Shown: positions 1-13,591 of the stretch, one piece after another
Numbering within the stretch: the first letter of the stretch is position 1
Layout of the letters: each line of letters opens with the position of its first letter
IMG/VR virus record: IMGVR_UViG_2663762839_000016
Location: 1 to 13,591 of that record
Reading direction: 5' to 3' (one strand)
Length of the DNA: 13,591 nucleotides
Source: a virus
Lineage: Duplodnaviria; Heunggongvirae; Uroviricota; Caudoviricetes
Notes under the pieces: generated by a model
What the model saw: only the letters and a program-made list of their open reading frames with translations
Told to the model about the DNA's origin: nothing
The model's database searches: none
Made by a program: the position numbers and the translations under genes

Positions 1-483
1 ATGACGAAGAAAAAAGCACATAAACCTGGTTCAGCGACCATCGCGCTTAACAAGCGCGCCCGTCACGAATACTTTATCGAAGAAGAGTTCGAAGCGGGAC
101 TTGCCCTGCAAGGCTGGGAAGTTAAATCCCTGCGCGCAGGAAAAGCCAATATCAGCGACAGCTACGTCCTTCTGCGTGACGGAGAGGCATTTCTGTTTGG
201 CGCTAACATCACGCCAATGGCCGTGGCCTCCACGCATGTGGTGTGCGATCCTACCCGTACCCGCAAGTTACTTCTCAACCAGCGCGAACTGGACTCATTG
301 TACGGTCGCGTCAATCGAGAAGGCTATACCGTAGTGGCGCTCTCCCTGTACTGGAAAAATGCCTGGTGCAAAGTGAAAATCGGCGTCGCCAAAGGTAAGA
401 AACAGCACGATAAACGTTCAGATATCAAAGAGCGCGAATGGCAGGTGGATAAAGCGCGTATCATGAAAAATGCCCACCGTTAA
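1..483 (+). CDS. smpB: SsrA-binding protein SmpB (trans-translation factor), complete 160 aa
   Basis: ORF 1..483 translates to [28 protein letters not shown]..., which I recognise as near-identical to enterobacterial SmpB; it lies directly upstream of tmRNA as in E. coli. Confidence 0.95.
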
Positions 484-697: not shown

Positions 698-1060
698 GGG
701 GCTGATTCTGGATTCGACGGGATTTGCGAAATCCAAGGTGCATGCCGAGGGGCGGTTGGCCTCGTAAAAAGCCGCAAAAAATAGTCGCAAACGACGAAAA
801 CTACGCTTTAGCAGCTTAATAACCTGCTTAGAGCCCTCTCTCCCTAGCCTCCGCTCTTAGGACGGGGATCAAGAGAGGTCAAACCCAAAAGAGATCGCGT
901 GGAAGCCCTGCCTGGGGTTGAAGCGTTAAAACTTAATCAGGCTAGTTTGTTAGTGGCGTGTCCGTCCGCAGCTGGCAAGCGAATGTAAAGACTGACTAAG
1001 CATGTAGTACCGAGGATGTAGGAATTTCGGACGCGGGTTCAACTCCCGCCAGCTCCACCA
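698..1060 (+). ncRNA. ssrA: tmRNA (SsrA, 10Sa RNA), 363 nt
   Basis: Starts GGGGCTGATTCTGGATTCGACGGG and ends GGGTTCAACTCCCGCCAGCTCCACCA; contains the tag reading frame and the tRNA-Ala-like acceptor/T-arm. Confidence 0.95.
787..819 (+). other. tmRNA tag-peptide reading frame (ANDENYALAA, stop TAA)
   Basis: GCA AAC GAC GAA AAC TAC GCT TTA GCA GCT TAA read directly; the E. coli-type tag (ENY) rather than the ETY I recall for Salmonella. Confidence 0.85.
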
Positions 1061-1070
1061 AATAAATCAA

Positions 1071-1103
1071 GGGGTTACGTGAAAGCGTAGCCCCTTTTTC
1101 TTT
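1071..1103 (+). terminator. rho-independent terminator immediately downstream of ssrA
   Basis: 9-bp stem GGGGTTACG / CGTAGCCCC (one G-U pair), 6-nt loop, followed by TTTTTCTTT. Confidence 0.7.
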
Positions 1104-1115
1104 AGTAGTGGCGGC

Positions 1116-1160
1116 AAAATGGCGACAGACTTTTGCGTCCATCTTGCCTGTCGCCATCTT
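1116..1160. repeat. 13-bp inverted repeat (AAAATGGCGACAG / CTGTCGCCATCTT, 12 of 13 complementary) with 19-bp spacer upstream of the cargo ORF; candidate operator
   Basis: Read directly; lies roughly 25-70 bp upstream of the ATG at 1184, which has an AGAGG Shine-Dalgarno 6 nt upstream. Confidence 0.3.
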
Positions 1161-1183
1161 GAAATCATGCAAAGAGGTTTCAC

Positions 1184-1666
1184 ATGGAAGAACTTCACTT
1201 TGTTTACATCAATGCAAATGGTCGTATCGGTGTTCACTCTATACAGAGCATCAGTTATAGCGAAAATCATATACAGGGCATTTGTAAGAACACCGATCGA
1301 ATAAAAACCTTCCGAAAAGACCGCATTCTTAAACAGTACGATTCACCAGAACAAGCCATTCAGGAGTGCGCGTCATTCCTCCCCGAAAACTACTCACATC
1401 TCACCAAGCAGTCTGGTCCGAAAAAAAATACATTCGATGTGTGTTTCACCGGATTTAAGAAAGCAGATAAAGAAAGATTGGTTGATAAGGCGAATGAACA
1501 AGGATTAACGGTAAGAACCTCTGTAACCCAAAGCCTTCAGATGCTCTGTTGCGGTTACAATGCAGGCCCATCAAAAGTATCGGCAGCCAGGATGAAAGGC
1601 ACAATCATCATAGATGAGCCTGGCTTTATACATTTTCTTGAAACGGGTGAGATCCCAGATGAATAA
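1184..1666 (+). CDS. hypothetical two-domain protein: N-terminal WYL-like domain plus C-terminal BRCT-like domain (160 aa); prophage cargo gene
   Basis: N-terminus HFVYINANGRIGVHSI...GICKNTDRIKTFRKDRI resembles the WYL domain signature (ends like R-x-F-R-L-D-R-I). C-terminus FDVCFTGF...GLTVRTSVTQSLQMLCCGYNAGPSKVSAARMKGTIIIDEPGFIHFLETGE matches the pattern of the NAD-ligase-type BRCT domain. Good SD, visibly AT-richer than the flanking tail genes, convergent with ogr. Confidence 0.6.
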   Translation: MEELHFVYINANGRIGVHSIQSISYSENHIQGICKNTDRIKTFRKDRILKQYDSPEQAIQECASFLPENYSHLTKQSGPKKNTFDVCFTGFKKADKERLVDKANEQGLTVRTSVTQSLQMLCCGYNAGPSKVSAARMKGTIIIDEPGFIHFLETGEIPDE

Positions 1667-1668
1667 AA

Positions 1669-1684
1669 ACCTGCCGTAGCAGGT
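1669..1684. terminator. candidate bidirectional terminator hairpin between the convergent cargo ORF and ogr
   Basis: ACCTGC-CGTA-GCAGGT hairpin flanked by AAAA on one side and TCTCTTTCTC on the other. Confidence 0.5.
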
Positions 1685-1692
1685 TCTCTTTC

Positions 1693-1911
1693 TCAAAAAT
1701 TCATATGCCCCTGACCACCTGGCAATGGATGTGGAGGAGCAGTAGCAATCAGTGCGGGTGTCACAATAAACCGGACCACTGTTTCATGGGTAACAAAAGT
1801 ACTCCCGCAGTTAATATTTTGGCACTGGCAGTAACGCTCTTTGGTGCTTTCAGTTACTTGAAAACTGCTCCTTGTGTGTGCCGCATGACCACACTTTGGA
1901 CAATTCATCAT
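1693..1911 (-). CDS. ogr: Ogr/Delta-family zinc-finger late-gene transcription activator (72 aa from MMNCPKCGH...)
   Basis: C-x2-C...C-x4-C pattern and ...TKERYCQCQNINCGSTF...PHPLP... resemble P2 Ogr as I recall it; it sits after gene D as in P2. The ORF-track start at 1956 is probably 15 codons too far upstream. Confidence 0.8.
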   Translation of the reverse strand: MMNCPKCGHAAHTRSSFQVTESTKERYCQCQNINCGSTFVTHETVVRFIVTPALIATAPPHPLPGGQGHMNF

Positions 1912-1979
1912 ATCCAGATCCCTACCTTTGCTATCAGAATCATTGTAATGATACACAAAATATCAATATTGAGAACACT

Positions 1980-3088
1980 TTATTCCATTTCAAGATCATC
2001 AATCTTCACTTCGAGTTCAATACTGGTTGTAAAACCGTTATCCGGGCTGACGGTATGTGTCAGAGTCGTAATGGTCCATTCCGCATCATCTATCGGCTGT
2101 TTAAAACCACTGACCTTCACAGGCATTTCCGTGTAGAGATCTGCCCGCCCTTCCGCCAGTTGTAGCGAGAATGACGCAACGCCACGTTGCAGGCGTTCCC
2201 ACTGCATTTTCGCTGCCCGTTCAGCGTTGCTCCGGTTGGCATAAGTGCGATTAAGTACCAGCACGTTTTCATCCGTCCCCACCAGGTAATCGCCCTGCTT
2301 CGCTTCCGGCTCTTTCTTCTGCTTCTTAGTCCTGCGCTTACGCTTCACCGTAGTGCTTTCTTTCTTCGCGGGTTCGCGGGTTCGCGGGTATGCAACCAGC
2401 TGGCAATTACCCCCGTGTAAGCTCCGCGATCTGCCAGGGTAAAGCGGTGACTGTCGCCGTCCTTACGTGCGATAGTAATCACCGGCAGTGGTTTACCGCT
2501 GGCGCTTTTGCCCTGTCCCTGCCGGATGAATAACAGATTGCCATTTTTCACCGATGCAATGGCACCGTACTGGCGCGCCAGCCGCATCAAAAAACTGCCG
2601 TCACTCTCATTAGTCTGGTCTATATGCTCCACGGGCTTATCCGACAGGTCTTTACCCAGTGCCATCTTCAGCTTGTGCCGCGCGGCTATTTCCTTCACCA
2701 CTTCCCCGATGGTGGTGTTATGCCACGATTTTTCACGGCGGGTATTCAGCGTTTCCCGAAAATCAGCACTTCGCGCCCGGATAGTCAGGCGGTCCGGTGC
2801 GCCAGTGTGTTCAATCTCGTCCACCGTGAATGCCCCTTTCGGGAAAAGCGGCTGCCCCTTCCAGCCCAGCGCCAGCGTAATGACCGCACCACGGCGCGGC
2901 AGCACGATTTTTCCGTCGGCGTCGTCCAGATCCAGATCAAGCTGGTCCGCTTCAAAGCCTCGGTTATCCGTCAGCGTAAGCCCCATCAGGCGTTTGTCCA
3001 GCACAGTGGTGATATCCTTCCCCTCAATACTGATGCTGAATGCGGGAGTTTTGTTGCCTTTGTTAAGCAGTTCAGAGCTGAAATTCAC
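1980..3088 (-). pseudogene. P2 gpD-like tail protein, split by a frameshift into 247-aa (2345..3088) and 122-aa (1980..2348) pieces
   Basis: Both pieces are continuous in homology to the gpD family. The first ends ...HTREPANPRRKKALR* and the second continues KRKRRTKKQKKEPEAKQGDYLVG in another frame, overlapping by 4 nt. Confidence 0.7.
2365..2388. repeat. three perfect tandem copies of the 8-bp unit TTCGCGGG inside gene D, just upstream of the frame break
   Basis: Read directly: ttcgcggg ttcgcggg ttcgcggg. Confidence 0.9.
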
Positions 3089-3570
3089 GACAGCAGCCCT
3101 CCCACCGTTTTACTGATATCGCTTAAGGCAGACGTTGCCGTATCCTGCAAATTATTCAGCTGCGCACTGAGATCACCGAACATATCGGACATGGATTCAT
3201 CCACCCGTTTGAGCGACAGGGTAAACTCAATCCGGCGCGGCATACCATCGCGGAAAAACTCCGTTTTAGTCTGATTCAGTCCCTCAATCACATACATGCC
3301 GTAAATCGTGCCGCTGCCTTCAATCAGGGGCCATGCTTTTCCCTGTTCTGCCATCTGCTCCAGAGCCAGCAACGACAGCCTGCCGCCCGTTATCTCCGGC
3401 ATAAGAACACCAGAAAGCGTCAGCATGTCGTTGTCCGGTCCCAGAAATTGCGTGGACGGACGACGGTTTACCCGGCTGTTTTCCGCATGTCGCCAGCTGC
3501 GTTGATACTGCAGTTCCTGATACGGAACGGTGCGCAGCATAAACACGTACAATCCCAGCACCATCATCAT
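3085..3570 (-). CDS. P2 gpU-like tail protein (161 aa)
   Basis: Position between T and D; size close to the ~159 aa I recall for P2 gpU; start overlaps the T stop. Confidence 0.8.
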   Translation of the reverse strand: MMMVLGLYVFMLRTVPYQELQYQRSWRHAENSRVNRRPSTQFLGPDNDMLTLSGVLMPEITGGRLSLLALEQMAEQGKAWPLIEGSGTIYGMYVIEGLNQTKTEFFRDGMPRRIEFTLSLKRVDESMSDMFGDLSAQLNNLQDTATSALSDISKTVGGLLS

Positions 3571-5429
3571 GCGTCGTATCCCCCCTGATCGCTGTAGTTA
3601 CTCCTGGCTTTTGCCTTCAGCCTGCGTTCACGTTCATCAAGCTGGCGTGCCACCTCCCGCGCAATATCCTGCGCACTTTGTCCTGGCTGCGTCTGAATGA
3701 TGATCTGCGTCGGTGCCTCAATCCGGTGAACGGGCGGTACAGTGGCTGCACGACTCACCATCGCTTCGCCGCCTTTCGCGGGAAGTGCCAAAGGATGCAA
3801 TGGTGGAAGCTCTGCAGGCGCGGCAGCAACGCCCATCATTCCGGCAACAACGGCAGCCAGTGCAGCTGTATTTCTCCGGCTGGTCACATTTGCCGGGCCG
3901 TTAACAATTTCCGGCCCGTTTTCACCGACGATGCCAAACTGCCCGCGCGGGATATAGCCGCCGCTGTCATACATCCCCGCAAAGCCATATCCCCATGACG
4001 GAAAACCACCCGGTGGCATCATCACTTTACCGTCTGCATTCACCGTCGCAGGTTGCTGACGCGTCACGCTTTCCGGCAGTTTCGCCTTTGCAGCCTCTTT
4101 ACTGACAATGCCGAGTTTCTCCAGCAACCAGGAAACGCCGGATTTCAGGGAGTCCAGCGGATGCATGACCATATTCAGCCCTTCCGCCAGTGCCTCCCCG
4201 AATCGTCGCCCCATTGCCGCTGCACTCTGCAGTTCGGCAGAGGTCGACTTAACGGGCGTCAGCAGATCAGTAAACCAGCCCCACAGCGCCTGTACTTTGT
4301 CGCCAATCCACTGGAACACGGGCTTAAGCGGTTCGAATGCTGCACTGACGGGACCTGCCGCCGCTTTGAATCCTTCCACTACGCCACCAAGAAATGCGGT
4401 GATGGGTTGCCAGTATTTCCAGACAACCAGCGCCACGCCCGCCAGTGCAGTAACCACAAGACCTATCGGACTGAGCAGAGCACCTAACAGACCAGATACG
4501 GCATACAGGGCAACGCGCAGCATCGCCAGTGGACCAGATGCCAGTACTCGCAGCACCGTGCCTGCGGAGGCCAGTCCACCGCGCAGTACCGCCAGAGGAT
4601 TCATAAACATCACAGCAACAGCACGTAAACCGGATAATCCAGACCGCAAAAGTGCAACCGGCGCACCTGCTACAGTTTTCAGGACATTTCCCGTCAGTGA
4701 TGCCGTGCGGCGCAAAGACGACAACGGCGCAGTAAGTAAACCTGCGGCGTTGCCCGATGAAGCAAGCCCGCGTCGCAGCAGTGCAAGTGGTGCGCCAGCC
4801 AACCAGGACAACGCGCTGCTGGTTCGCGTTACTGCTGCCGTAACGGAAGGTAACGTTTTGATACCCAGCACAGAGAATCCCAGACGGATGACTGCCAGCG
4901 GCCCCAGCACAGCAGCCAACACCACAGCCAGGGTGCCGAGGCCCACAGTAACAGCAGCCACAACCGCGGCTACTTTCATCAGTGTGCCCGTCAGTTCAGG
5001 GTTAGCTTCTACCCAGCGACGCAACGCCCCCGTGATGCTTTTCACCGTGTACAGAATATCCATCAGCGGCTGGCGCAGCGTTTCGCCCAGGCTGCTGAAG
5101 GTGTTCTGCGCTCCGGTTTTGACCAGCAACCACTGCGCAGAAAGTGAGTCCTTGTTAATGTCGGATTCTTTCTGCATCGAACCGAGCGCATCATTGCCCG
5201 CTGTCAGTTTTAGCTGGCGCTGCAGTTCCGGCAGGTTGTTTGCCAGTTTCGCCGCATCATCGCCAAACTCTTTACCAAACAACATGGTCATGGCAGACAG
5301 GCGCTTATCCTGCGGCAGTGCGTTCACCTTCTCCAGTACGCGCTGGATAGTTCCCATCGCATCCTTCGTCAGCGGCATAACGTCAGTAACGGATGGCGGC
5401 CAGTGAAAGATGGTGGCGATATCAGCCAC
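3567..5429 (-). CDS. tail tape measure protein (gpT-like); ORF-track start is a GTG and the frame is continuous with the E -1 frame
   Basis: Long Ala/Gly/Leu-rich ORF with a hydrophobic central region, located between E and U. 620 aa versus the ~815 aa I recall for P2 gpT. No obvious SD before the GTG at 5429. Confidence 0.8.
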   Translation of the reverse strand: MADIATIFHWPPSVTDVMPLTKDAMGTIQRVLEKVNALPQDKRLSAMTMLFGKEFGDDAAKLANNLPELQRQLKLTAGNDALGSMQKESDINKDSLSAQWLLVKTGAQNTFSSLGETLRQPLMDILYTVKSITGALRRWVEANPELTGTLMKVAAVVAAVTVGLGTLAVVLAAVLGPLAVIRLGFSVLGIKTLPSVTAAVTRTSSALSWLAGAPLALLRRGLASSGNAAGLLTAPLSSLRRTASLTGNVLKTVAGAPVALLRSGLSGLRAVAVMFMNPLAVLRGGLASAGTVLRVLASGPLAMLRVALYAVSGLLGALLSPIGLVVTALAGVALVVWKYWQPITAFLGGVVEGFKAAAGPVSAAFEPLKPVFQWIGDKVQALWGWFTDLLTPVKSTSAELQSAAAMGRRFGEALAEGLNMVMHPLDSLKSGVSWLLEKLGIVSKEAAKAKLPESVTRQQPATVNADGKVMMPPGGFPSWGYGFAGMYDSGGYIPRGQFGIVGENGPEIVNGPANVTSRRNTAALAAVVAGMMGVAAAPAELPPLHPLALPAKGGEAMVSRAATVPPVHRIEAPTQIIIQTQPGQSAQDIAREVARQLDERERRLKAKARSNYSDQGGYDA

Positions 5430-5443
5430 CAGATCGTCAACCG

Positions 5444-5746
5444 TCAGGCTGTCGGTAAACCGGCAAGCACCGACTTCTTCAACAAAAAAGTGACAACCTC
5501 AACCGACATGGCAGTGAGATCTGCCGGGTCCATCTCTACAATTTCCTGTGCAGTCAGTGCCGGACTGGAGATGCGGGGGATCACGGTCATCATCGCGTTC
5601 ACATCCATATCCATAATGGCCTGCAGGCGCGTACCGCGCAGCGCACCGGACTGCGGTTTACGCAGCACAATTTCGGTGATTTCTGTTTTACCGCGCTTGA
5701 TGGGGGTATCCAGTTGAATAGTCTTTTCAGTCTGCTTATCGCTCAT
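5444..5746 (-). CDS. tail assembly chaperone gpE-like (100 aa)
   Basis: Small ORF directly upstream of the tape measure, with a T-TTT-TTG heptamer 11 codons before its stop. Confidence 0.75.
   Translation of the reverse strand: MSDKQTEKTIQLDTPIKRGKTEITEIVLRKPQSGALRGTRLQAIMDMDVNAMMTVIPRISSPALTAQEIVEMDPADLTAMSVEVVTFLLKKSVLAGLPTA
5483..5489 (-). other. programmed -1 frameshift slippery heptamer T TTT TTG (E to E')
   Basis: Plus strand reads caaaaaa, i.e. TTTTTTG on the coding strand in the X XXY YYZ register of the E frame; the same motif is described for P2 E/E'. Confidence 0.55.
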
Positions 5747-5800
5747 TTTGCTGTCCTGTAAATTGGGTTCTGGCGCGGTATCCCGCGCCGTTCAGATACA

Positions 5801-6316
5801 TCAGAGGCCGAGGGCGTTGCGGTGCGCTTCCATCAGGTCCACACCGTCCACAATTTCCACCATGTTGATAAGGTCCACTTCATAGAGCACCTCACCATTT
5901 ATAGTCAGCTTCGCGTAGCTGTTGGTACTGGTCACTTTGGTGGTGTTGCTTTCACCCGTCTTCCACTCGCCGGAATCCACTTCTTTGTGACGTCCACGCA
6001 CCACAAGCTCCACGGCCTGCACTTCCCCGGTATCGTCACGCTGGATAGAGCCGGTAAAGCGCAACTGGATACCATCCACCGTGGCTTTGCCCATCTGCTT
6101 AAACAGCAGCAGTTCAGTACCACCAATGGAAAATTCCGTATCCAGTGCGCCGTCATCCAGCCCCAGATCCACATCCACTGCACCCGGCATTCCGCCGCCG
6201 CGATACTTCTCATATTTGCGGGTAAATTTCGGCAGCGTCAGCGACTCAACGATCCCCTGCCAGTTGTTCCCGTCATTAAACAGGTTCAGGTGTTTTAATT
6301 TGCGTGGTAAAGCCAT
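5801..6316 (-). CDS. contractile tail tube protein (gpFII-like, 171 aa)
   Basis: Size and position downstream of the sheath gene match P2 FII. Confidence 0.85.
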   Translation of the reverse strand: MALPRKLKHLNLFNDGNNWQGIVESLTLPKFTRKYEKYRGGGMPGAVDVDLGLDDGALDTEFSIGGTELLLFKQMGKATVDGIQLRFTGSIQRDDTGEVQAVELVVRGRHKEVDSGEWKTGESNTTKVTSTNSYAKLTINGEVLYEVDLINMVEIVDGVDLMEAHRNALGL

Positions 6317-6325
6317 GTTGTCCCC

Positions 6326-7498
6326 TTACGCGCTGACCTGGCTGGAGAAATTCACCAGGTACTGATCGGTGATGCGCTGACGCAGCATCAGGTTTTCAAG
6401 TGGCGGCACTGGCGTGTAGTCGTAGTCGATGGTGAGTTTTCCGGCTTTCAGCGTGTCTTTGTCGTTCACCGACTCATCCAGCCAGCAATCACCACCAATG
6501 AGATAGCCCTGACTGACCAGGCTGCGCATTTTGGCGCGGATACCCTCGATAATGTCGCGGGCCAGCGACGGATTCAGCGGTTTATCCACCGCCCACATGT
6601 GCGCTTCTGCCATCGTGTCCGTCAGCACCTGCGCCGTGCGGGTGTAGTTTTCGAAGGCAAAGAGCGGGTCATCACTCAGGCAGCGGGAACCCCAGAAGCG
6701 AAAACCGTCTTTGCGGATAAGGGTGGTGACGTCGTTCTGGTTCAGCAGTCCCGCATCGGTTGCCGGGTCCTGCAGATCCCAGAACACATCAGCAGAAATT
6801 CCGGTGACACCGTTAACGCCCACGTTGGACAGGCTTTTGTGCCATCCGGTCTGCTCGTCAATTTTGGCGCGCAGACCAAGCGCACGGGCGGTGGCATAAG
6901 CCGTTGCTTCGGCATTCAGCACCGTGTCCCAGCCAGTAAAGTCGGGCCAGATCAGCATTCCTTCACGCTGACTGAAGTTTTCACGGTAAGTGATTGCTTC
7001 CTGCACTGTCTTGCAACCATACGCTGACAGGTAAGCAAATCCACGCAGGCTTTGCGCCACGCTCAGCAACTCAGTAGCTACCGCCTTCGTGTCGTGACCT
7101 GGCACGCCGAGAATGCGCGGTTTAACGCCGAGCTGTGACTGGGCAGATAACAGGGCTTTCATGCCTGTTTTTTTACCTTCAGCGGTCACTGCTCCGATGA
7201 TATTGGTCGTGGTTTCTTCTTCCGTTTCACCCTGCGGCACACGCACAACAACGGTCACGGGTTTTGCCTGGTCAGCGATGGCATCCAGCGAACGAGCCAG
7301 CGTGCCTGACTCACCCGCTTTACCGCTGGCAGTCAGCACATCAGTGATCAGCACGGGTTTATTAAGAGGAAACATTTTTGCATCGGCATCATCGCCCGTG
7401 CAGACCATACCCACGATGGCGGTGCTCACCGTGGTAATGGATCGGGTGCCTTCGTTGACTTCAACAACGCGCACCCCGTGGTGGTAATCCTGAGCCAT
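6326..7498 (-). CDS. contractile tail sheath protein (gpFI-like, 390 aa)
   Basis: Size and position match P2 FI; strong AGGAGG SD 9 nt upstream of the ATG. Confidence 0.9.
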
Positions 7499-7574
7499 AG
7501 TGGCGAACCTCCTGATTGGATTAGGCTTCGCCCTATGTTGAAGTGATTGTGCCTGACAAACAGCTAAGCGCAGT

Positions 7575-7592
7575 TGTACCGTTATTCACACA
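7575..7592 (-). promoter_or_regulatory. candidate Ogr-dependent late promoter element (TGT-N12-ACA dyad) upstream of FI
   Basis: TGTACCGTTATTCACACA, centred ~85 bp upstream of the FI start codon; P2 late promoters carry TGT-N12-ACA centred near -55. Confidence 0.4.
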
Positions 7593-7640
7593 AAATGACG
7601 GTATTTGTCTGCTTTCAGGGATAATCAAAATAAAGCTGAT

Positions 7641-8213
7641 TCAGGGAGATTTATTGTTCTTATTTGCCGGAAATTTTCGATAAATGGTAGAAACGCCTAC
7701 ATCAAAAATCAGTGCAATACGCTGTCTTGATTCTCCGGCCTCGAGTAAACGCCCAATCTGTGCCCACTGTTCGCTGGTCAACTTAGGACGGCGTCCACCT
7801 ACTCTGCCTTTAGCACGAGCTGCAGCCAGCCCCGCCCTGGTACGTTCAACTATCAGTTCGCGTTCCATTTCAGCCAGGGCACCCATGACATGAAAAAAGA
7901 AACGGCCCATTGGGGTGCTGGTATCAATACTGTCAGTCAGGCTTCGGAAATTCACGCCACGCTGGCGCAGCTCTTCTATCAGCGTAACAAGATGCCGCAT
8001 ACTGCGCCCCAGTCTGTCCAGCTTCCAGACAACCAGCGTGTCTCCTGCCGATAGTGTCCTGAGCAGCTTTTTCAGCCCCGGTCTGTCGGACTTGGTGCCA
8101 CTGATTTTATCCTCAAAAATCCGCTCACATCCCGCACAGTTCAGTGCATTGCGTTGCAAATCGGTGTTCTGGTCATTTGTTGACACGCGTACATAACCAA
8201 TAAGCATGATCAT
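7641..8213 (-). CDS. serine DNA invertase of the Hin/Gin/Pin/Cin family
   Basis: MLIGYVRVSTNDQNTDLQRNAL...GDTLVVWKLDRLGRSMRHL...MGRFFFHVMGALAEMERELI... recognised as near-identical in pattern to Gin/Pin, with a C-terminal HTH. Confidence 0.9.
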   Translation of the reverse strand: MIMLIGYVRVSTNDQNTDLQRNALNCAGCERIFEDKISGTKSDRPGLKKLLRTLSAGDTLVVWKLDRLGRSMRHLVTLIEELRQRGVNFRSLTDSIDTSTPMGRFFFHVMGALAEMERELIVERTRAGLAAARAKGRVGGRRPKLTSEQWAQIGRLLEAGESRQRIALIFDVGVSTIYRKFPANKNNKSP

Positions 8214-8262
8214 CCCCCTGAATAAAAACCGGAGATGATGCCAGTTAGCCGTTATCTCTGCA

Positions 8263-8288
8263 TTTTCATAAACGTTGGTTTGGGAGAA
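8263..8288. other. invertase crossover site (hix/gix-like), pin-proximal
   Basis: TTTTCATAAACG-TT-GGTTTGGGAGAA; the right half-site and central TT are identical to the reverse complement of the site at 9873-9898. Confidence 0.7.
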
Positions 8289-8729
8289 GGCTCTGCATTA
8301 CCTGTTGGTGTGCCTGTTCCATGGCCTTCAGCCACACCGCCAACAGGCTGGCTGAAATGCAATGGTGCGCCTTTTTCTGCAGAAGAATACCCGGAACTGG
8401 CCAAGGCTTATCCGACAAATAAATTGCCTGATTTACGTGGTGAGTTTATTCGTGGATGGGATGATGGGCGCGGGGTTGATAATGGAAGAAGTATCCTGTC
8501 CTCTCAGAGTGACACATTACAAGACCACGGCCATAAGTCGATAAGGTTGCGATCTGTTGGCGCAAACGGGGGAAATATTCCAGTTCCCGATGGCGGCGCT
8601 GATTTCACTGGAGATGCTGACTTAATCAATGCGATTTCAGTCCATGCATTTAACGGTGGGGTTCCAAGAGTATCGGGAGAAACACGCCCCCGCAACATTG
8701 CATTTAACTACATCGTGAGGGCTGCATAA
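8277..8729 (+). CDS. alternative (currently unexpressed) tail-fibre C-terminal segment Hv'
   Basis: Begins at the G-L-G-E codons of the crossover site, in frame; ends ...NIAFNYIVRAA, matching the P2 H C-terminus as I recall it. The upstream ATG at 8235 lies outside the invertible segment and is probably not a real start. Confidence 0.7.
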   Translation, partial: GLGEGSALPVGVPVPWPSATPPTGWLKCNGAPFSAEEYPELAKAYPTNKLPDLRGEFIRGWDDGRGVDNGRSILSSQSDTLQDHGHKSIRLRSVGANGGNIPVPDGGADFTGDADLINAISVHAFNGGVPRVSGETRPRNIAFNYIVRAA

Positions 8730-9328
8730 TGACACAGGCAAAATTAAACAGTGAATTTATTGCCACAGTAGCGGGTGATATTACCGTCTATAACTATGAC
8801 AACACGACACGGGAATACATTTCATCATCAACAGAATATCTTGCCGTTGGCGTCGGTATCCCGGCATGTTCTTGTTTAGATGCACCAGTTACACATAAAG
8901 CTGGTTATGCAATCTGCCGTTCTGCAGATTTTAACTCATGGGAATATGTACCAGACCATCGCGGTGAAATCATCTATAGCACCGAAACAGGAGAATCGAA
9001 AGAAATCACAGCTCTGGGTGATTACCCTGAAAATACAACCACTATCGCCCCGTTAACGCCATATGATAAATGGGATGGTGAGAAATGGGTGACGGATACC
9101 GAGGCACAATATAGCGCCGCAGTGGACGCGGCAGAAATCCAACGCCAGTCACTGATTGATGCTGCAATGGCTTCCATTAGTCTGATTCAGCTGAAATTAC
9201 GGGCCGGACGGAATCTGACGCAGGCAGAAACCGCCCGACTTAACGCTGCGCTGGATTACATTGACGCGGTGACGGCAACTGATACCAGCACCGCGCCGGA
9301 TATCAATTGGCCTGAACTGTACGTCTAG
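8729..9328 (+). CDS. tail fibre assembly protein (Tfa/gpG-like, 199 aa), paired with Hv'
   Basis: ...WDGEKWVTDTEAQ...NAALDYIDAVTATDTSTAPDINWPE resembles lambda Tfa / P2 G-type chaperones; immediately downstream of Hv'. Confidence 0.75.
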   Translation: MTQAKLNSEFIATVAGDITVYNYDNTTREYISSSTEYLAVGVGIPACSCLDAPVTHKAGYAICRSADFNSWEYVPDHRGEIIYSTETGESKEITALGDYPENTTTIAPLTPYDKWDGEKWVTDTEAQYSAAVDAAEIQRQSLIDAAMASISLIQLKLRAGRNLTQAETARLNAALDYIDAVTATDTSTAPDINWPELYV

Positions 9329-9537
9329 CTTACCATTACCCACGTGGGTAGCCCATTGCTACCCGCCGCTCGTTTCATTCCCTCCGGAGGCGTCCCTAAA
9401 AACTTCAGAGCCATATCGTCATCGACGGGCTTAATATCATCAGGCAGAATGCCATTTGAACGGTATGCATTGAGTAATACTGCCGGATAAAATTGATTCG
9501 TTGTCGCGCTATAAAAGTAAATATTCATTATCACCAT
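9325..9537 (-). CDS. short tail-fibre-assembly-like ORF (70 aa) paired with the expressed fibre C-terminus; possibly truncated
   Basis: N-terminus MNIYFYSATTNQFYPAVLL... looks like a fibre-assembly chaperone N-terminus, but the ORF is about a third the length of its inverted partner. Confidence 0.45.
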   Translation of the reverse strand: MVIMNIYFYSATTNQFYPAVLLNAYRSNGILPDDIKPVDDDMALKFLGTPPEGMKRAAGSNGLPTWVMVS

Positions 9538-10670
9538 CCCTTCGCATACCAGTTACATGTCAAATTTGCCGGATTAACGTTATTACCCTCTGCCGTTGCG
9601 CAGCCAACCCTGAATTTTGAGTTGCTGACAGGGAATGCCTGTGAAATCTCGGCATATGACGTGTCATTCGGATCCGAGCTAATTAAAACGAACGCACAAC
9701 GGTTCGGGAATGGGATGACAAAATCTCCATCGCCGTTTCCATAATTACCGCGCCCCCATTGCTCAAGAAATCCATCTGGCGTCAACCGCCACCCGTAATC
9801 TGCTTTCAGCGATGTCCATTTGCTCATATCAGGGATCTGATTTGCCCCAATCCCAACATCCCTTTTTGCCGCTTCTCCCAAACCAAGGTATGTGAGAAGA
9901 CCAGCTACATCCTTTCCACTCAAATTAGTCAGCGTATTGTCCAGCGGTTGTTTACCTGCCAGCGCATTAAGCATTGTCGTGGCAAAGTTCGGGTCATTCC
10001 CCAGCGCTGCCGCCAGTTCGTTCAGTGTATCCAGTGCCGCAGGTGCAGAACCCACCATTGCCGCAATCGCCGATTTCACAAATGCCGTGGTGGCAATCTG
10101 TGTATTGTTGACCGACTGTGCCGCCGTGGGGGCTGTTGGCGTTCCGGTGAGTGCCGGACTCGACAACGGTGCTTTTAGTGCCAGCGCATTGTTAATGGTG
10201 GTACTGAAATTCGGATCATTGTTAATGGCTGCGGCTATTTCTTTCAGCGTGTCCAGCGTGGCTGGCGCACCATTAATAAGGGCCGTCAGTGCCGCCTGTA
10301 CAAACGCAGTGGTCGCAACCTGCGTGGTATTATTCCCCGCCGCTGGCGTTGGCGCTTTGGGGGTTCCGGTAAATGTCGGGCTGGCTTTTGGCGCGTACTG
10401 TGAATGCGGGTCCGGTGCGGCAAGATGTTTTGCCATCTGATCATCCGCGTACACCTTCAGCGCAACCTGCTTTAAACGCGGCTGCGTCACCGTGCCGTCA
10501 GTGCGCATCACGCTGCGAAACTCCGACAGGTCCACATCAGGCCAGAACGGCGTGTTTCTGATGATTTCCGCCTGTTCCGGTGCCTGTTCTGGCGCAACAA
10601 ACTTCATGCTGCTTTCTCCTGAAATAAAGGGCGGTGGACGGGGTTTTGATGTGGTAGAGCCTTTCGCCAC
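9531..10670 (-). CDS. tail fibre protein (gpH-like repeat region and variable C-terminus) with an N-terminal ~70 aa that looks gpL-like; probable L'::'H fusion
   Basis: Residues ~80-260 match the P2 H central repeats (PALTGTPTAPTA...NTQIATTAFV...ALDTLNELAAALGNDPNFATTMLNALAGKQP). The N-terminus FWPDVDLSEFRSVMRTDGTVTQPRLKQ does not resemble a fibre N-terminus and lies where gene L follows M in P2. Confidence 0.7.
   Translation of the reverse strand: MAKGSTTSKPRPPPFISGESSMKFVAPEQAPEQAEIIRNTPFWPDVDLSEFRSVMRTDGTVTQPRLKQVALKVYADDQMAKHLAAPDPHSQYAPKASPTFTGTPKAPTPAAGNNTTQVATTAFVQAALTALINGAPATLDTLKEIAAAINNDPNFSTTINNALALKAPLSSPALTGTPTAPTAAQSVNNTQIATTAFVKSAIAAMVGSAPAALDTLNELAAALGNDPNFATTMLNALAGKQPLDNTLTNLSGKDVAGLLTYLGLGEAAKRDVGIGANQIPDMSKWTSLKADYGWRLTPDGFLEQWGRGNYGNGDGDFVIPFPNRCAFVLISSDPNDTSYAEISQAFPVSNSKFRVGCATAEGNNVNPANLTCNWYAKGW
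9873..9898. other. invertase crossover site (hix/gix-like) inside the tail fibre gene
   Basis: TTCTCCCAAACC-AA-GGTATGTGAGAA; its reverse complement shares the 12-bp half-site GGTTTGGGAGAA and the central dinucleotide with the site at 8263-8288. Confidence 0.7.
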
Positions 10671-10702
10671 CCCGTGCCGCCCGTGCGCGGGGGCACGTTC
10701 TG

Positions 10703-11107
10703 TCAGCGGCTGTCATTGCGCAGTCTGCGCTCCAGCTGCTGTTTGTCTTTTTTCACGCCACAGCGGGGATCGAGCTGTAACGCATGGTTGAGATGGTTAA
10801 GGGCAGAAGCCGGATTGCTTTCACTCAGGACAGCGCCAATCGCTTTATGCAGACGCGCCCGTGACTGGTCCGGCATATCCAGACCGTCTGTCAGCTCCAG
10901 CGTCTGCAACAACAGATCGGCATCAAAGCCGGTGGCGGCAAGCATTGCGCTCTGCGCCGCGTCTGCCATTTCCTCTGCCAGCACGGTCTGCACATTGCGG
11001 TTACCCAGCGGCATCACCCAGCCATGACGCAGGGCATGACGCCCGATCTCCAGCGCCCCGGCATAATCTCCGGCATCAATGCGCCACAGCATCACGTACA
11101 TCAGCAC
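10703..11107 (-). pseudogene. C-terminal fragment of terminase small/endonuclease subunit (gpM-like)
   Basis: MYVMLWRIDAGDYAGALEIGRHALRHG...LELTDGLDMPDQSRARLHK...GVKKDKQQLERRL resembles the C-terminal half of P2 gpM as I recall it; the N-terminal half and all genes between A and M are missing. Confidence 0.55.
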
Positions 11108-12753
11108 GTCATGCCAAAGAAGCGGAATTGCTGAACACGATGCAGAGACGCCCAGGCATTAACGTATTCAGCGTTATCACGCAGGGATTTACCCGTTTCC
11201 TTGCTGATCTCGCCAGCCAGACCACGCCCGTCAATGTTCTTACTGATGTATTTCGCGATGTAGCTTGTTGGCGTACCTTTGCGCGGGTTTATCAGCTCAG
11301 ACTTAAAGCGTGGCCCCGTGTTATTGCCCAGCTCCTCGCGGTCTTCACGGATGGCAAACTTACGCAACAATGCAGTAATGGCGCGGCGGTCTTTTTTACG
11401 CATGAAACACAACAGGTGCCAGTGAACTGTGCCGTCATGATGCGGCTCAGCCACCCGCACGCCATACCAGCGCAACCCGGCTTTGTGCATAGCCTTACGA
11501 AATGCAGCAAACATGCCGACCAGATAATCGCTGCTTTGTCTTACTGTCGCGTTGGTCCAGGTCGGGTTTGGCCTGCCGTTATTTAGCGTGGAATGGAAAC
11601 GTGACGGACAGGTGATGGTGTAGAAAACGGCGCAGTCACCACGCATTTCCGCGATAAGCTCCAGGCCTTTAACACAGGCCATCATCTCATTGCGGCGATG
11701 CGCCGGGTTGCTGCTGCTGGCGTTTACCACATCCTCCATGTTCAGCGTGTCGCCGTCTTCGTTCACCAGTTCATGAGAACGGAAAAACTCCAGCGACTTA
11801 CGGCGCTGCTCACGTTTATGCATCACGGCTTCATAGCTGACATAGGGAGATGCTTTTTTGCTGACCAGGCAGACAGCACGCAACTGCTCTTCCCACCATT
11901 CGCAACGCATCTTCCATAATTTCCGATACCACCAGTCGGCGCACAGCATACGCGCCAGCGAACCCGGAATGAGTTCATAGGGCACAGGTTTGCGGCGGTT
12001 TCTTTTCCGGCGGAGTTGCTCAAACGCAGGCGGTATGACATCCAGTCGCAGGGTTTCTGCAGCCACCTTTTCCCATGTCTTGCGGATTTCTTCTGGCTTA
12101 ACATCATCGGAGGCGTACAAATCACCACAAGCGGCATCAAGACACATGCTCATATGCGCAGCGACAAGGGTAGACAGGCGTTTCACCTGATCCTGACTCA
12201 TTTCAGGCAGGATCAGCAGACCGTCCAGCCCTTCATGGCTTGCCATAAAACGAAAAGATGCAGATAGCTGGCTGTCGCGTACATGCTCCAGTCGTTCCAG
12301 ACATGGCTTAATCGTCTCACGCAAATAGCGGGAATAAGCCTTTGGCCTGCCCAGGCTGCTGAAATATTCAATACGTTGCATCAGCGGCTTGCTGATATGG
12401 GAAGGCTGGGCGTTGACGTCGGCCAGAATGACCATGTCCGGATTAAAACGCTGCTGCTCATGCGCCATCTTTGCCCGGCTAATGAGCTTATCCTGCTCCA
12501 TTTCGCGTTGGACAGGATCACGGGATTCATTAAAGAAATAACGCTCCCAGACCTGATCACTCAGTGCCTCGCGGCGCAGTTGTTCCTGCTCGTTATCAGT
12601 AGCGTACAGAGTGATCAGGTTTGAAAGCGCAGAAACCGGCGCAACTTCCGCCGGGTCCAGATAAGGGTTAATGGCCTTTTTCGGGCTGTTCCATGAGAAC
12701 GATGCGGCAGCTTCGTTAAAGCCGCAGCAGTTGTTCATATCGGCATGACTCAT
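11101..12753 (-). pseudogene. rolling-circle replication initiator (gpA-like), C-terminally truncated
   Basis: HUH motif ([15 protein letters not shown]) and paired catalytic tyrosines ([12 protein letters not shown]) are present. The ORF stops about 35 aa after the Y motif, whereas I recall P2 gpA as ~761 aa. Confidence 0.7.
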
Positions 12754-12994
12754 GCACGTACTCCGTACACGGCAGAACTATCCACGCCACGCGAATAATC
12801 AAATCCCACCCAGCAGCGCGGCCCGGAAACAGCAATGATTTCTGTTGCTGATTTACCCTCGCCAGCTGCCACACCGATGCTGCGTTTTGCCTTGATGTAG
12901 TGGTGAGTAAAATTGCGATACAGCGAACGGATCAGGGATGTGTCACTGTTAGAAACAATGACCGGATGTCCTTCTGATGACCGATGTTCAAGAA
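12750..12994 (-). pseudogene. 5'-truncated phage gene fragment immediately upstream of A (the position of gene B in P2)
   Basis: ORF overlaps the A start by 4 nt; its apparent start codons lie within fliR-derived sequence, so the native 5' end is missing. Identity not recognised. Confidence 0.3.
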
Positions 12995-13591
12995 ATTGCC
13001 CCATCATTACCTGCCAACGATGTTCCTGTTTTTTCGTTCTTTGCTCTGTGGCTGGCCGTACAGCAGATCCTGATCGGTATTGCGCTTGGTTTTACCATGC
13101 AATTTGCCTTTGCCGCTGTGCGAACCGCTGGCGAAATTATCGGTCTGCAAATGGGGCTGTCATTTGCGACATTTGTCGATCCGGCCAGCCATCTTAATAT
13201 GCCCGTTTTAGCGCGTATCATGGATATGCTGGCGTTACTGCTGTTCCTGACATTTAACGGTCATTTATGGTTGATTTCACTGCTAGTCGATACCTTTCAC
13301 ACCCTGCCGATTGGTGGCGAACCGTTGAACAGCAATGCGTTTCTGGCACTCACCAAAGCAGGGAGTTTGATTTTCCTTAACGTGCTGATGCTGGCATTAC
13401 CGCTCATTACTCTGCTGCTGACCCTGAATCTGGCATTAGGCTTACTTAATCGTATGGCCCCGCAATTATCCATTTTTGTTATTGGATTTCCATTAACTCT
13501 GACTGTCGGTATCTCTTTAATGGCGGCATTAATGCCGTTAATTGCGCCTTTTTGCGAACATTTATTCAGTGAAATTTTTAATTTGCTGGCT
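12995..13591 (+). CDS. fliR: flagellar export-gate protein FliR, 5'-truncated (the N-terminal ~third missing); continues past the window end
   Basis: In-frame translation [77 protein letters not shown]...[12 protein letters not shown] matches enterobacterial FliR from about its first third onward; no native start codon or upstream fli sequence is present. Confidence 0.8.

Follow-up and report, generated by a model that had tools for sequence, protein, structure and literature searches.

The 13,591-nucleotide stretch of phage DNA analysed here, referred to as the window, carries a site-specific inversion system of the Pin/Gin/Cin/Hin family that originates from a P2-like prophage integrated beside ssrA in Escherichia coli. 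The switch is of a known type, in which a Pin/Gin-type invertase flips a 1.6-kb segment and the tips of the tail fibre are swapped. We put the probability that the locus is a Pin-type inversion system orphaned by the decay of its prophage at about 85%.

In the proposed mechanism, the 188-aa serine invertase would pair two inverted 26-bp sites and cut their identical 2-bp cores, and the 1612-bp segment would then be inverted, so that the 3′ part of the fibre gene and the chaperone gene downstream of it are exchanged as a unit. The two alternative products would be a gp53-like tip paired with a 67-aa tail fibre assembly (Tfa) protein and a Collar-domain tip paired with one of 199 aa. In the window, the recombination machinery is intact and most probably still inverts the segment in a small fraction of the cells, but the output of the switch is dead. 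The positions of the features are collected in Table 1.

Table 1. Features of the inversion locus in the window
Feature	Positions	Strand	Detail	Basis
Serine DNA invertase, Pin/Gin type	7641-8207	-		Pfam domains, identity to PinE and Gin, structure match
Invertase-proximal (left) crossover site	8263-8288		26 bp; core TT at 8275-8276	26/26 identity to the e14 pinE-proximal site
Invertible segment	8275-9886		1612 bp core to core	Inverted repeat, in silico inversion, Logan contig L004 equal to 8260-9886
Silent fibre C-terminal cassette Hv'	8277-8729	+	Collar-domain tip	Pfam Collar, phrog_523
Tail fibre assembly protein	8729-9328	+	199 aa; cognate of Hv'	Pfam Caudo_TAP, 1.2e-30
Short tail fibre assembly protein	9325-9528	-	N-terminal domain only	Caudo_TAP, phrog_19350
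Fibre C-terminal cassette Hv	9531-9884	-	gp53-like tip; now joined to the constant part	Pfam Gp53-like_C
Distal crossover site	9873-9898		26 bp, within the fibre gene; core AA at 9885-9886	Half-site and comparison with e14
"Constant" part of the fibre ORF	9887-10607	-	gpL-gpH deletion fusion	blastp, Pfam, RefSeq

Crossover sites, invertase and exchanged cassettes

The left site reads TTTTCATAAACG TT GGTTTGGGAGAA and agreed at 22 of 26 positions with the reverse complement of the distal site, with 15 identical nucleotides that comprise the inner half-site, the 2-bp core and one further base. Both sites lie in the arms of the highest-ranking inverted repeat in this region (8263-8289 and 9872-9898; 27 nt, 85% complementary, 1582 nt between the arms). 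The 14-mer TTCTCCCAAACCAA was present in two copies in the window, located exactly at the two sites and in inverted orientation. Its chance expectation was 0.01 occurrences, and at least two copies were obtained in 0 of 200 shuffles.

Alignment with known sites of the Hin family showed that the left site is identical at all 26 positions to the pinE-proximal pix site of e14 in E. coli K-12. The inner half and core of the distal site are identical to those of the left site and of both e14 sites, and the sequence TTCTCCCAAACCAAGGT is common to the distal site and the other e14 site, which agree in three bases beyond the inner half and the core. With identical cores (TT/AA), the pair constitutes the two inverted 26-bp sites of the Hin/Gin/Cin/Pin systems. 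A multi-site, shufflon-like locus with more than two sites and more than two variants, of which the three-repeat fibre locus of the EPEC P2-like prophage is an example, was ruled out because only two sites were found with up to one mismatch in the 14-mer; the weaker 12-mer matches that are present are not full sites.

The invertase gene lies directly outside the segment, and the gap between the crossover site and the start codon is 55 nt, compared with 54 nt in e14. The protein has 188 aa from the gene-caller start, or 190 aa if translation begins at an in-frame upstream ATG at 8213. It contains the Pfam domains Resolvase (2.3e-53) and HTH_7 (5.8e-16) and retains Ser9 and the conserved MLIGYVRVS motif. 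It shares 85.3% of its residues with PinE of e14 and 73.4% with Gin of Mu, and two structures of Gin, 3UJ3 and 4M6F, were matched at E=1e-92. An identical protein was found in 4440 blocks of the sequence collection, and among the matches listed, 9 of the 10 places carrying it were apparently complete E. coli P2-like prophages. Neither the invertase nor the cassettes were assigned to an informative family by NCBIfam. Over its first 200 nt, the invertase gene aligned well with pinE and gin. The reaction presumably depends on Fis and an enhancer, which in this family of systems is a cis-acting, Fis-bound element within the 5′ part of the invertase gene, and a crude G-N13-C scan of the invertase gene for Fis sites gave candidates, none of which was securely assignable.

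The silent cassette Hv' contains a Collar domain (1.5e-15) and matched phrog_523, tail collar fiber protein, at 2e-67. The currently joined cassette Hv contains a Gp53-like_C domain (6.5e-10), and intact 467-aa fibres bearing a gp53-like tip of the Hv type exist in E. coli. Both crossover sites translate as G-L-G-E in the frame of the fibre cassettes. Inversion of 8275-9886 in silico converted the 358-aa ORF into a 391-aa ORF with the reading frame kept, and the new ORF ended in the Collar cassette (8277-8729), followed directly by the gene for the 199-aa Tfa protein. The preliminary description, made from the sequence alone, had proposed two inverted hix/gix-like sites sharing a half-site and a central TT, an intact invertase and an in-frame exchange of C-termini, and all three proposals agreed with these results.

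The same description had pointed to an asymmetry between the two chaperone genes, which is real: the products have 199 aa and 70 aa, the latter counted from the ATG at 9537 and shortened to 67 aa with the gene-caller start. The longer protein is named in RefSeq as a tail fiber assembly protein of E. coli (WP_045176059.1). According to North et al. (2019), as presented in PMC9608196, Tfa proteins combine a variable fibre-binding N-terminal domain with a conserved C-terminal helical trimerisation domain. When the 70-aa ORF was aligned with full-length Tfa proteins, it covered only residues 1-66 of proteins of 145-147 aa, and their conserved C-terminal ~75 aa were missing. It spans positions 2-55 of the 131 in the Caudo_TAP profile, and with the C-terminal domain absent it does not have the two-domain form of that family.

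The short protein also matched phrog_19350, which has a profile length of 70. Its 90%-identity cluster consists of 43 members of 58-70 aa, nearly all of them of 66-70 aa, and intact E. coli, Citrobacter and Shigella prophages carry members of this 66-70-aa family. The gene was always found downstream of a gp53-like tip. Local prophage decay was ruled out as the origin of the short form by the conservation of the family in intact prophages. Speculatively, the short protein may be a functional minimal chaperone or a tip accessory that does its work with the usual C-terminal trimerisation domain missing.

Orientation of the segment in relatives and in the strain

The same pair of cassettes was found in the flipped orientation, relative to the window, in two E. 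coli strains, MARGA_3 and 23CRST047, and in each it lies within an intact prophage; over window positions 9310-9875 the pair is 99.5% identical in MARGA_3 and 97.5% identical in 23CRST047. In 12 related loci with both sites, the left site is kept, the outer half-sites are fixed to the invertase flank and the Hc flank, and the flanks on the cassette side swap. The distal outer half GGTATGTGAGAA stays beside the constant part in these relatives, whichever way the segment is oriented. Both states therefore occur among natural relatives, and in intact ones the equivalent exchange is a host-range switch. The segments of e14 and of P2-like prophages flip continuously in E. coli cultures (PMC4272514).

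Within the strain, evidence for flipping came from the Logan contigs of run ERR738831, which are built from 31-mers seen at least twice (PMC12424806). Three contigs equal window positions 1035-8289, 8260-9886 and 9857-12994, with 100% identity and 30-nt overlaps, and thus break exactly at 8289, 8260, 9886 and 9857. The contig ends were simulated with a k=31 de Bruijn graph, and the simulated unitigs were equal to the Logan contigs only for the window plus the flipped left junction. Since the simulation requires the flipped left junction in the reads, the switch probably still flips. The flipped right junction, which would shift the breaks to 8275 and 9872, was absent from the Logan graph. Flipping in the strain is consequently inferred from one junction, read from the contig ends, and the missing right junction must be ascribed to low coverage or graph cleaning. 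The NCBI assembly contig is read straight through in a single orientation. The earlier suggestion that the switch is plausibly active is probably correct, in view of the flipped pair in intact relatives and the contig ends of ERR738831 that fit a flipped junction, and we consider it quite likely that the segment still flips in this strain.

The alternative to be weighed first is a frozen relic, in which flipping has ceased in this strain although neither the sites nor the invertase gene show any sequence damage; a lack of invertase expression could be one cause. The Logan breaks would then stem from a second related prophage, from chimeric library fragments or from contaminating DNA of a related strain. 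The presence in the graph of just one of the two expected flipped junctions and the uniform orientation of the NCBI contig would fit such a locus. Thousands of E. coli prophages share the invertase and the sites, which makes a second copy in the genome conceivable, and a crude sigma-70 scan of positions 7400-13000, uninformative for Ogr-dependent late promoters, found no promoter-like site for the invertase or for the gpL-gpH fusion described below. On the other side, homologous systems, that of the defective e14 included, flip constitutively in culture (PMC4272514). All four contig ends agree to the base with those predicted for a junction that joins the left flank of this very locus to its right cassette end. 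If a second prophage were present at full coverage, the right-hand junction would be expected in addition, as well as points of divergence inside the 7.3-kb and 1.6-kb contigs; no such extra breaks were seen, so a second copy is the less likely cause of the breaks. Loss of flipping is therefore regarded as unlikely, both as an inactive switch and with respect to these other origins of the breaks.

It is less likely still that the segment flips in trans, through another Hin-family invertase such as e14 Pin or that of another prophage, and not through the adjacent gene. Gin, Cin, Pin and Hin can replace one another, the left site is the same as the e14 site, and several such loci are often present in one E. 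coli genome, with a median of 2 and a maximum of 13 places matching the region. The adjacent gene, however, encodes a full-length invertase with the catalytic Ser9, the same protein as in intact prophages, and the part of the strain's genome that was covered gave no positive evidence for another invertase. We thus retain flipping by the adjacent Pin-type invertase as the preferred reading.

Decay of the prophage and the gpL-gpH fusion

That the prophage is defective, as the preliminary description had it, was borne out by deletions, gene fusions and the absence of capsid, lysis and baseplate genes, with about half of the prophage genome lost. The same description had spoken of a constant part of the fibre on which the C-termini would be swapped. 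This part is not a fibre N-terminus; it consists of gpL residues 1-50 (10458-10607) joined to gpH from about residue 155. In a blastp comparison with an intact relative (L011), the fusion aligned with L residues 1-50 at 100% identity and with H residues 155-473. Pfam detected Phage_GPL and Gp53-like_C in the fusion ORF, and the Phage_tail_fib N-terminal domain was not found. Approximately 5.97 kb is absent at the fusion when compared with L011 and L001. Exact-pattern scans of genome contigs gave no match for the L-H deletion junction or for the smpB-ssrA spacer; the assignment to E. coli comes from the RefSeq names of the encoded proteins and from matches to E. coli genomes. In RefSeq the fusion is named "head completion/stabilization protein" (WP_205248973.1), an annotation that really denotes an L-H deletion fusion carrying an invertible tip.

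By a second deletion, replication gene A was truncated and fused to a truncated terminase gene M, and the capsid and portal genes were lost. The tape-measure gene T has a 1.3-kb deletion, and D is split. The genes Q, P, O, N, X, holin, lysozyme, lysA/B/C, R, S, V, W, J and I are absent, and the full capsid, packaging, lysis, baseplate and tail set of a functional P2-like prophage is not present. No shared att repeat was found between the ssrA end and the int end of Logan contig L018. The lineage-specific deletion proteins were found only in GCA_000946855.1 and run ERR738831, and a literature search for the run and assembly accessions gave no match.

With the loss of the genes for capsid, lysis and baseplate, there is no virion on which flipping could act. 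The architecture of the in-frame exchange is preserved, and its recipient is a gpL(1-50)-gpH(155-) fusion that lacks the attachment domain. We take the late promoters PO and PV, from their places on the P2 gene map, to have been situated in the DNA lost from the fusion, which is thus presumably not expressed. With the baseplate-attachment domain and the late promoters missing, no phenotype would remain to be phase-varied.

A switch domesticated by the host is very improbable. The host would then retain the invertase, or the flipping L'-'H fusion and its chaperones, in a role that serves the host itself, such as controlling invertible loci elsewhere or producing a secreted or surface protein whose tip comes in two versions. 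In favour of this reading, no interruption affects the invertase, either cassette or either chaperone ORF, although four other prophage parts are deleted or frameshifted, and the genes for the tail sheath and tail tube, ogr, int and the repressor gene are likewise intact. Against it, the fusion and the other deletion products were found on just one NCBI contig and in a single sequencing run, so that the decay looks recent and not selectively maintained; the absence of V, W, J and I makes a tailocin impossible, and the fusion would be without PO and PV.

Relation to known inversion systems

The closest known system is the P segment/Pin of the cryptic prophage e14 of E. coli K-12 (stfP/tfaP, tfaE/stfE, pinE), which, like the window, has convergent pairs of a cassette and a Tfa gene. 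Both prophages are defective, and the e14 segment still flips (PMC4272514), as the segment in the window probably does. Whereas e14 is a lambdoid remnant at icd, the prophage in the window is a P2-like remnant at ssrA, and unlike e14 it combines gp53-like and Collar tips, the 67-aa short Tfa protein and a constant part made of the gpL-gpH fusion.

Among P2-like E. coli prophages, those of EPEC E2348/69 (Goldberg et al., 2014), UTAK-18, MARGA_3 and 23CRST047 agree with the window in the invertase, in the sites and in the order fibre, segment, invertase and sheath. The prophage of UTAK-18, an intact relative, also occupies the ssrA site. These relatives are complete and have fibres of 467-516 aa with a Phage_tail_fib N-terminal domain, whereas the window has no fibre N-terminus.

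The G segment/Gin of Mu and the C segment/Cin of P1 resemble the window in having a serine invertase just outside the segment and 26-bp inverted sites, and in swapping the fibre C-terminus together with Tfa (S/U versus S'/U'). The gix sites of Mu differ from those of the window in their sequence, TTATCCAAAACC TC GGTTTACAGGAA, with the core TC, and the G segment measures 3 kb in a different phage backbone, compared with 1612 bp in the window. Salmonella Hin/hix has the same invertase family and 26-bp site architecture; Hin, however, flips a promoter, whereas the switch in the window exchanges coding 3′ ends.

The locus represents a textbook host-range switch of the Pin/Gin type, with flipping of close relatives demonstrated experimentally in E. 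coli, and has little importance beyond annotation. Of modest use is the observation that the ends of Logan k-mer contigs can expose a minority flipped junction to the base, with no need for the reads. Separately from the possible role of the short Tfa protein, the invertase might conceivably be kept to drive other loci in trans, although we think this rather doubtful. The conserved, N-terminal-only short Tfa proteins that accompany gp53-like tips could interest engineers of fibre-chaperone pairs.

Sequence relationships of the inversion system

Judged by sequence, the locus belongs to the Pin/Gin/Cin/Hin family of inversion systems, and within it to those that exchange fibre C-termini, because of the identity of its invertase, the identity and architecture of its sites, and the spacing between site and start codon. 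The invertase, correctly described earlier as intact, is a 188-aa protein with Resolvase and HTH_7 domains and the catalytic serine. It shares 85% identity with PinE of the K-12 cryptic prophage e14 and 73% with Gin of phage Mu, and matches Gin crystal structures at E=1e-92. The sites were compared with pix and gix, as had been proposed, using e14 from K-12 and Mu from GenBank. The invertase-proximal (left) site is identical to the pinE-adjacent site at 26/26 positions, while the distal (right) site has TTCTCCCAAACCAAGGT in common with the other e14 site, and the invertase start codon lies 55 nt from its site, compared with 54 nt in e14. The gix sites of Mu share this architecture but not the sequence.

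The inverted-repeat arms (8263–8289 and 9872–9898) are each 27 nt long, with 85% complementarity. Read as 26-bp sites, they match at 22/26 positions, with the inner half-site, the 2-bp core, and one further base identical, in agreement with the preliminary description of two inverted sites sharing a half-site and core. The 14-mer TTCTCCCAAACCAA occurs at just these two positions of the window, in opposite orientations, with 0.01 occurrences predicted by shuffles. Both sites translate to ...GLGE in the frame of a fibre cassette. The proposed in-frame swap of C-termini at G-L-G-E was reproduced by inverting the segment in silico, which converted the 358-aa ORF with the gp53-like tip into a 391-aa ORF with the Collar-domain tip, directly followed by the gene of the 199-aa tail fibre assembly protein (Tfa).

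Features of the prophage locus in the order of the window
Feature	Position	Strand	Remarks
smpB	1–483		window start
tmRNA gene	698–1060
P2-like prophage	after tmRNA gene	minus
ogr	1708–1926	minus
D	1980–3088	minus	split into 247-aa and 122-aa ORFs
U	after D in prophage order	minus
Tape-measure gene		minus	1.3-kb internal deletion; 8-nt overlap at junction 5364–5371
Tail assembly gene (P2 E-type), then tube gene	between tape-measure and sheath genes	minus
Sheath gene	6326–7498	minus	followed in order by invertase, invertible segment, and fibre ORF
Invertase	7641–8207
Invertible segment	8275–9886		from the core of one site to that of the other
Fibre ORF	9531–10607	minus	gpL residues 1–50 fused to H from about residue 155
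M (terminase)	within 10703–12753	minus	last 134 codons, residues 83–216
A (replication)	within 10703–12753	minus	first ~550 codons; 550 aa ending ...FFGMTC

Related switches and the short putative chaperone

The identical invertase protein was found in 4,440 blocks of the contig collection. In 9/10 of the matches listed, an apparently complete P2-like prophage had it between its fibre/chaperone cassettes and its sheath gene; the remaining match, L007, was a prophage remnant without anything on the fibre side of the invertase. Both sites are present in 12 related loci, among which they were compared. The outer half-site CGTTTA(T/A)GAAAA was adjacent to the invertase and GGTATG(T/C)GAGAA adjoined the constant fibre part in 12/12, while the cassette-specific 12 nt internal to each site occurred on either side. 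The gp53-like/short-Tfa cassette of the window is rare and was found in only three complete E. coli genomes. In the E. coli genomes MARGA_3 and 23CRST047, the whole cassette pair is reversed relative to the window (99.5% and 97.5% identical over 9310–9875, respectively), and the Collar tip is carried on a full-length fibre of ~500 aa in an intact prophage. With the cassette pairs flipped and the outer half-sites fixed, the natural exchange point therefore lies exactly at these sites.

The same Collar cassette with the 199-aa Tfa, 99.8% identical in DNA, was also observed at 725–1965 of contig L003 (GCA_043303435.1, DAYQXB010000271.1), where the adjoining outer half-site is another one (CCTTTGAAATAT) and the invertase is a diverged protein of 182 aa. 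Thus, cassettes move between switches with different invertases.

The chaperone asymmetry of 70 versus 199 aa was also confirmed. The 70-aa ORF, 67 aa from the start used by gene callers, aligns only to the first ~66 residues of the 145–147-aa Tfa proteins of relatives and ends at the onset of the conserved C-terminal ~75 residues of the longer proteins. According to the account of North et al. (2019) in PMC9608196, a Tfa binds the fibre through its variable N-terminal domain and trimerises through its conserved C-terminal helices. In the intact MARGA_3 prophage, the short Tfa is an annotated gene, and 23CRST047 has an uninterrupted ORF for it. Its cluster at 90% identity comprises 43 distinct sequences of 58–70 aa, nearly all 66–70, from E. 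coli, Citrobacter, Shigella, and a phage MAG, and it matches a PHROG family of 70 positions. The intact MARGA_3 copy, the cluster, and the PHROG family rule out decay peculiar to the window prophage.

Probable flipping in the source strain

Two lineage-specific products, the tape measure truncated to 596 aa and, encoded beside the M remnant, the gpA truncated to 550 aa, were found only in GCA_000946855.1 and the Logan assembly of run ERR738831. Three contigs of the latter were 100% identical to the window (1035–8289, 8260–9886, and 9857–12994 and beyond), with overlaps of exactly 30 nt between neighbours. Logan assemblies are built from 31-mer graphs after once-seen k-mers are dropped, with subsequent Minia3 simplification (PMC12424806). 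We simulated k=31 graphs of the window alone and with the flipped left junction (in which the flank of the invertase runs into the right cassette end, reverse-complemented), the right junction, or both. The window alone produced one unitig, whereas the left junction produced unitig ends at exactly 8289, 8260, 9886, and 9857; the right junction only produced breaks at 8304/8275 and 9901/9872, and both produced five pieces. Therefore, the contig ends imply at least two reads with the flipped left junction, which supports the earlier view of a plausibly active switch. The flipped right junction was missing from the ERR738831 contigs, which is the main weakness of this argument and was put down to graph cleaning or to a minority subpopulation with low coverage. 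The repeat itself does not cause the breaks, since the perfect repeat is just 15 nt, and a second, fully covered prophage would introduce break points that were not seen in these contigs. Experiments have shown that the segments of e14 and of P2-like prophages flip when E. coli is grown in ordinary culture (PMC4272514).

Several short-read contigs with the short Tfa (cluster members P0002 and P0009) were only 1.7–1.9 kb long, approximately the size of the invertible segment. The assemblies of other strains may thus also be broken at the crossover sites, which is what flipping of the segments in culture would be expected to cause.

Prophage decay and the fused fibre

The window corresponds to the end of contig CDRI01000009.1 (its final 13,591 nt) in NCBI assembly GCA_000946855.1. 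Its proteins carry Escherichia coli names in RefSeq, and parts of it were matched in all 5,426 complete E. coli genomes. The prophage is defective, as previously stated, with L–H and A–M deletions, a split D, and a tape measure of 596–620 aa versus 1025 aa in relatives. The A remnant abuts the M remnant near 11101–11112; by the P2 gene map, the missing DNA presumably held cos, Q, P, O, and N (portal, terminase, scaffold, capsid). Beyond the window, int, a CI-type repressor, and early genes persist on L018, a Logan contig of the same lineage.

In the last ~600 nt of the window (12995–13591), an internal part of the flagellar gene FliR is abruptly joined to the 3′ remnant of a phage Dam-like methylase, while L018 runs on through the methylase and early genes to the repressor and int without this join. 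The NCBI contig end may be chimeric or a true rearrangement. Between ssrA and ogr, a 160-aa protein (1184–1666, plus strand) with a weak BRCT match and a strong match to phrog_2561 ("DNA ligase", 2e-77) also occurs in the intact relatives L009–L011 and looks like a prophage cargo gene. A 143-aa ORF without family (1705–2136, plus strand) overlaps ogr on the opposite strand.

According to the alignments, the "constant part" of the fibre is a deletion fusion. Its L part is 100% identical to the intact relative L011, and 10458–10607 is joined in frame to 9887–10461 with a 2–4 nt alignment overlap. Pfam detected Phage_GPL and Gp53-like_C, but not the N-terminal Phage_tail_fib domain present in the 467–516-aa fibres of relatives; the RefSeq name is "head completion/stabilization protein" (WP_205248973.1). 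The gap of ~5.97 kb versus intact relatives covers X, holin, lysozyme, lysA/B/C, R, S, V, W, J, I, and the 5′ end of H. By the P2 operon map, the fusion would lack both of the late promoters from which it could have been transcribed. Virion or tailocin production is impossible. With this output lost, inversion therefore alters the DNA without a known phenotype.

In the spacer between invertase and site, an ATG at 8235 is in frame with the silent Collar cassette (8235–8729, plus strand), which gives rise to free-standing 163–182-aa "phage tail protein" calls here and in many other genomes. Such calls are probably artefacts that the silent cassette causes in annotation.

The coordinates, description, and interpretation given previously were accurate; the fusion nature of the constant part was missed. 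A functional fibre as the output of the switch was lacking at this locus. The other features of the family examined here were present, except that no secure position was found for the Fis enhancer, and in its working the locus resembles the P segment of e14 with Pin. Elements of this kind are very common, annotated, and experimentally studied, and the present one is a decayed copy.
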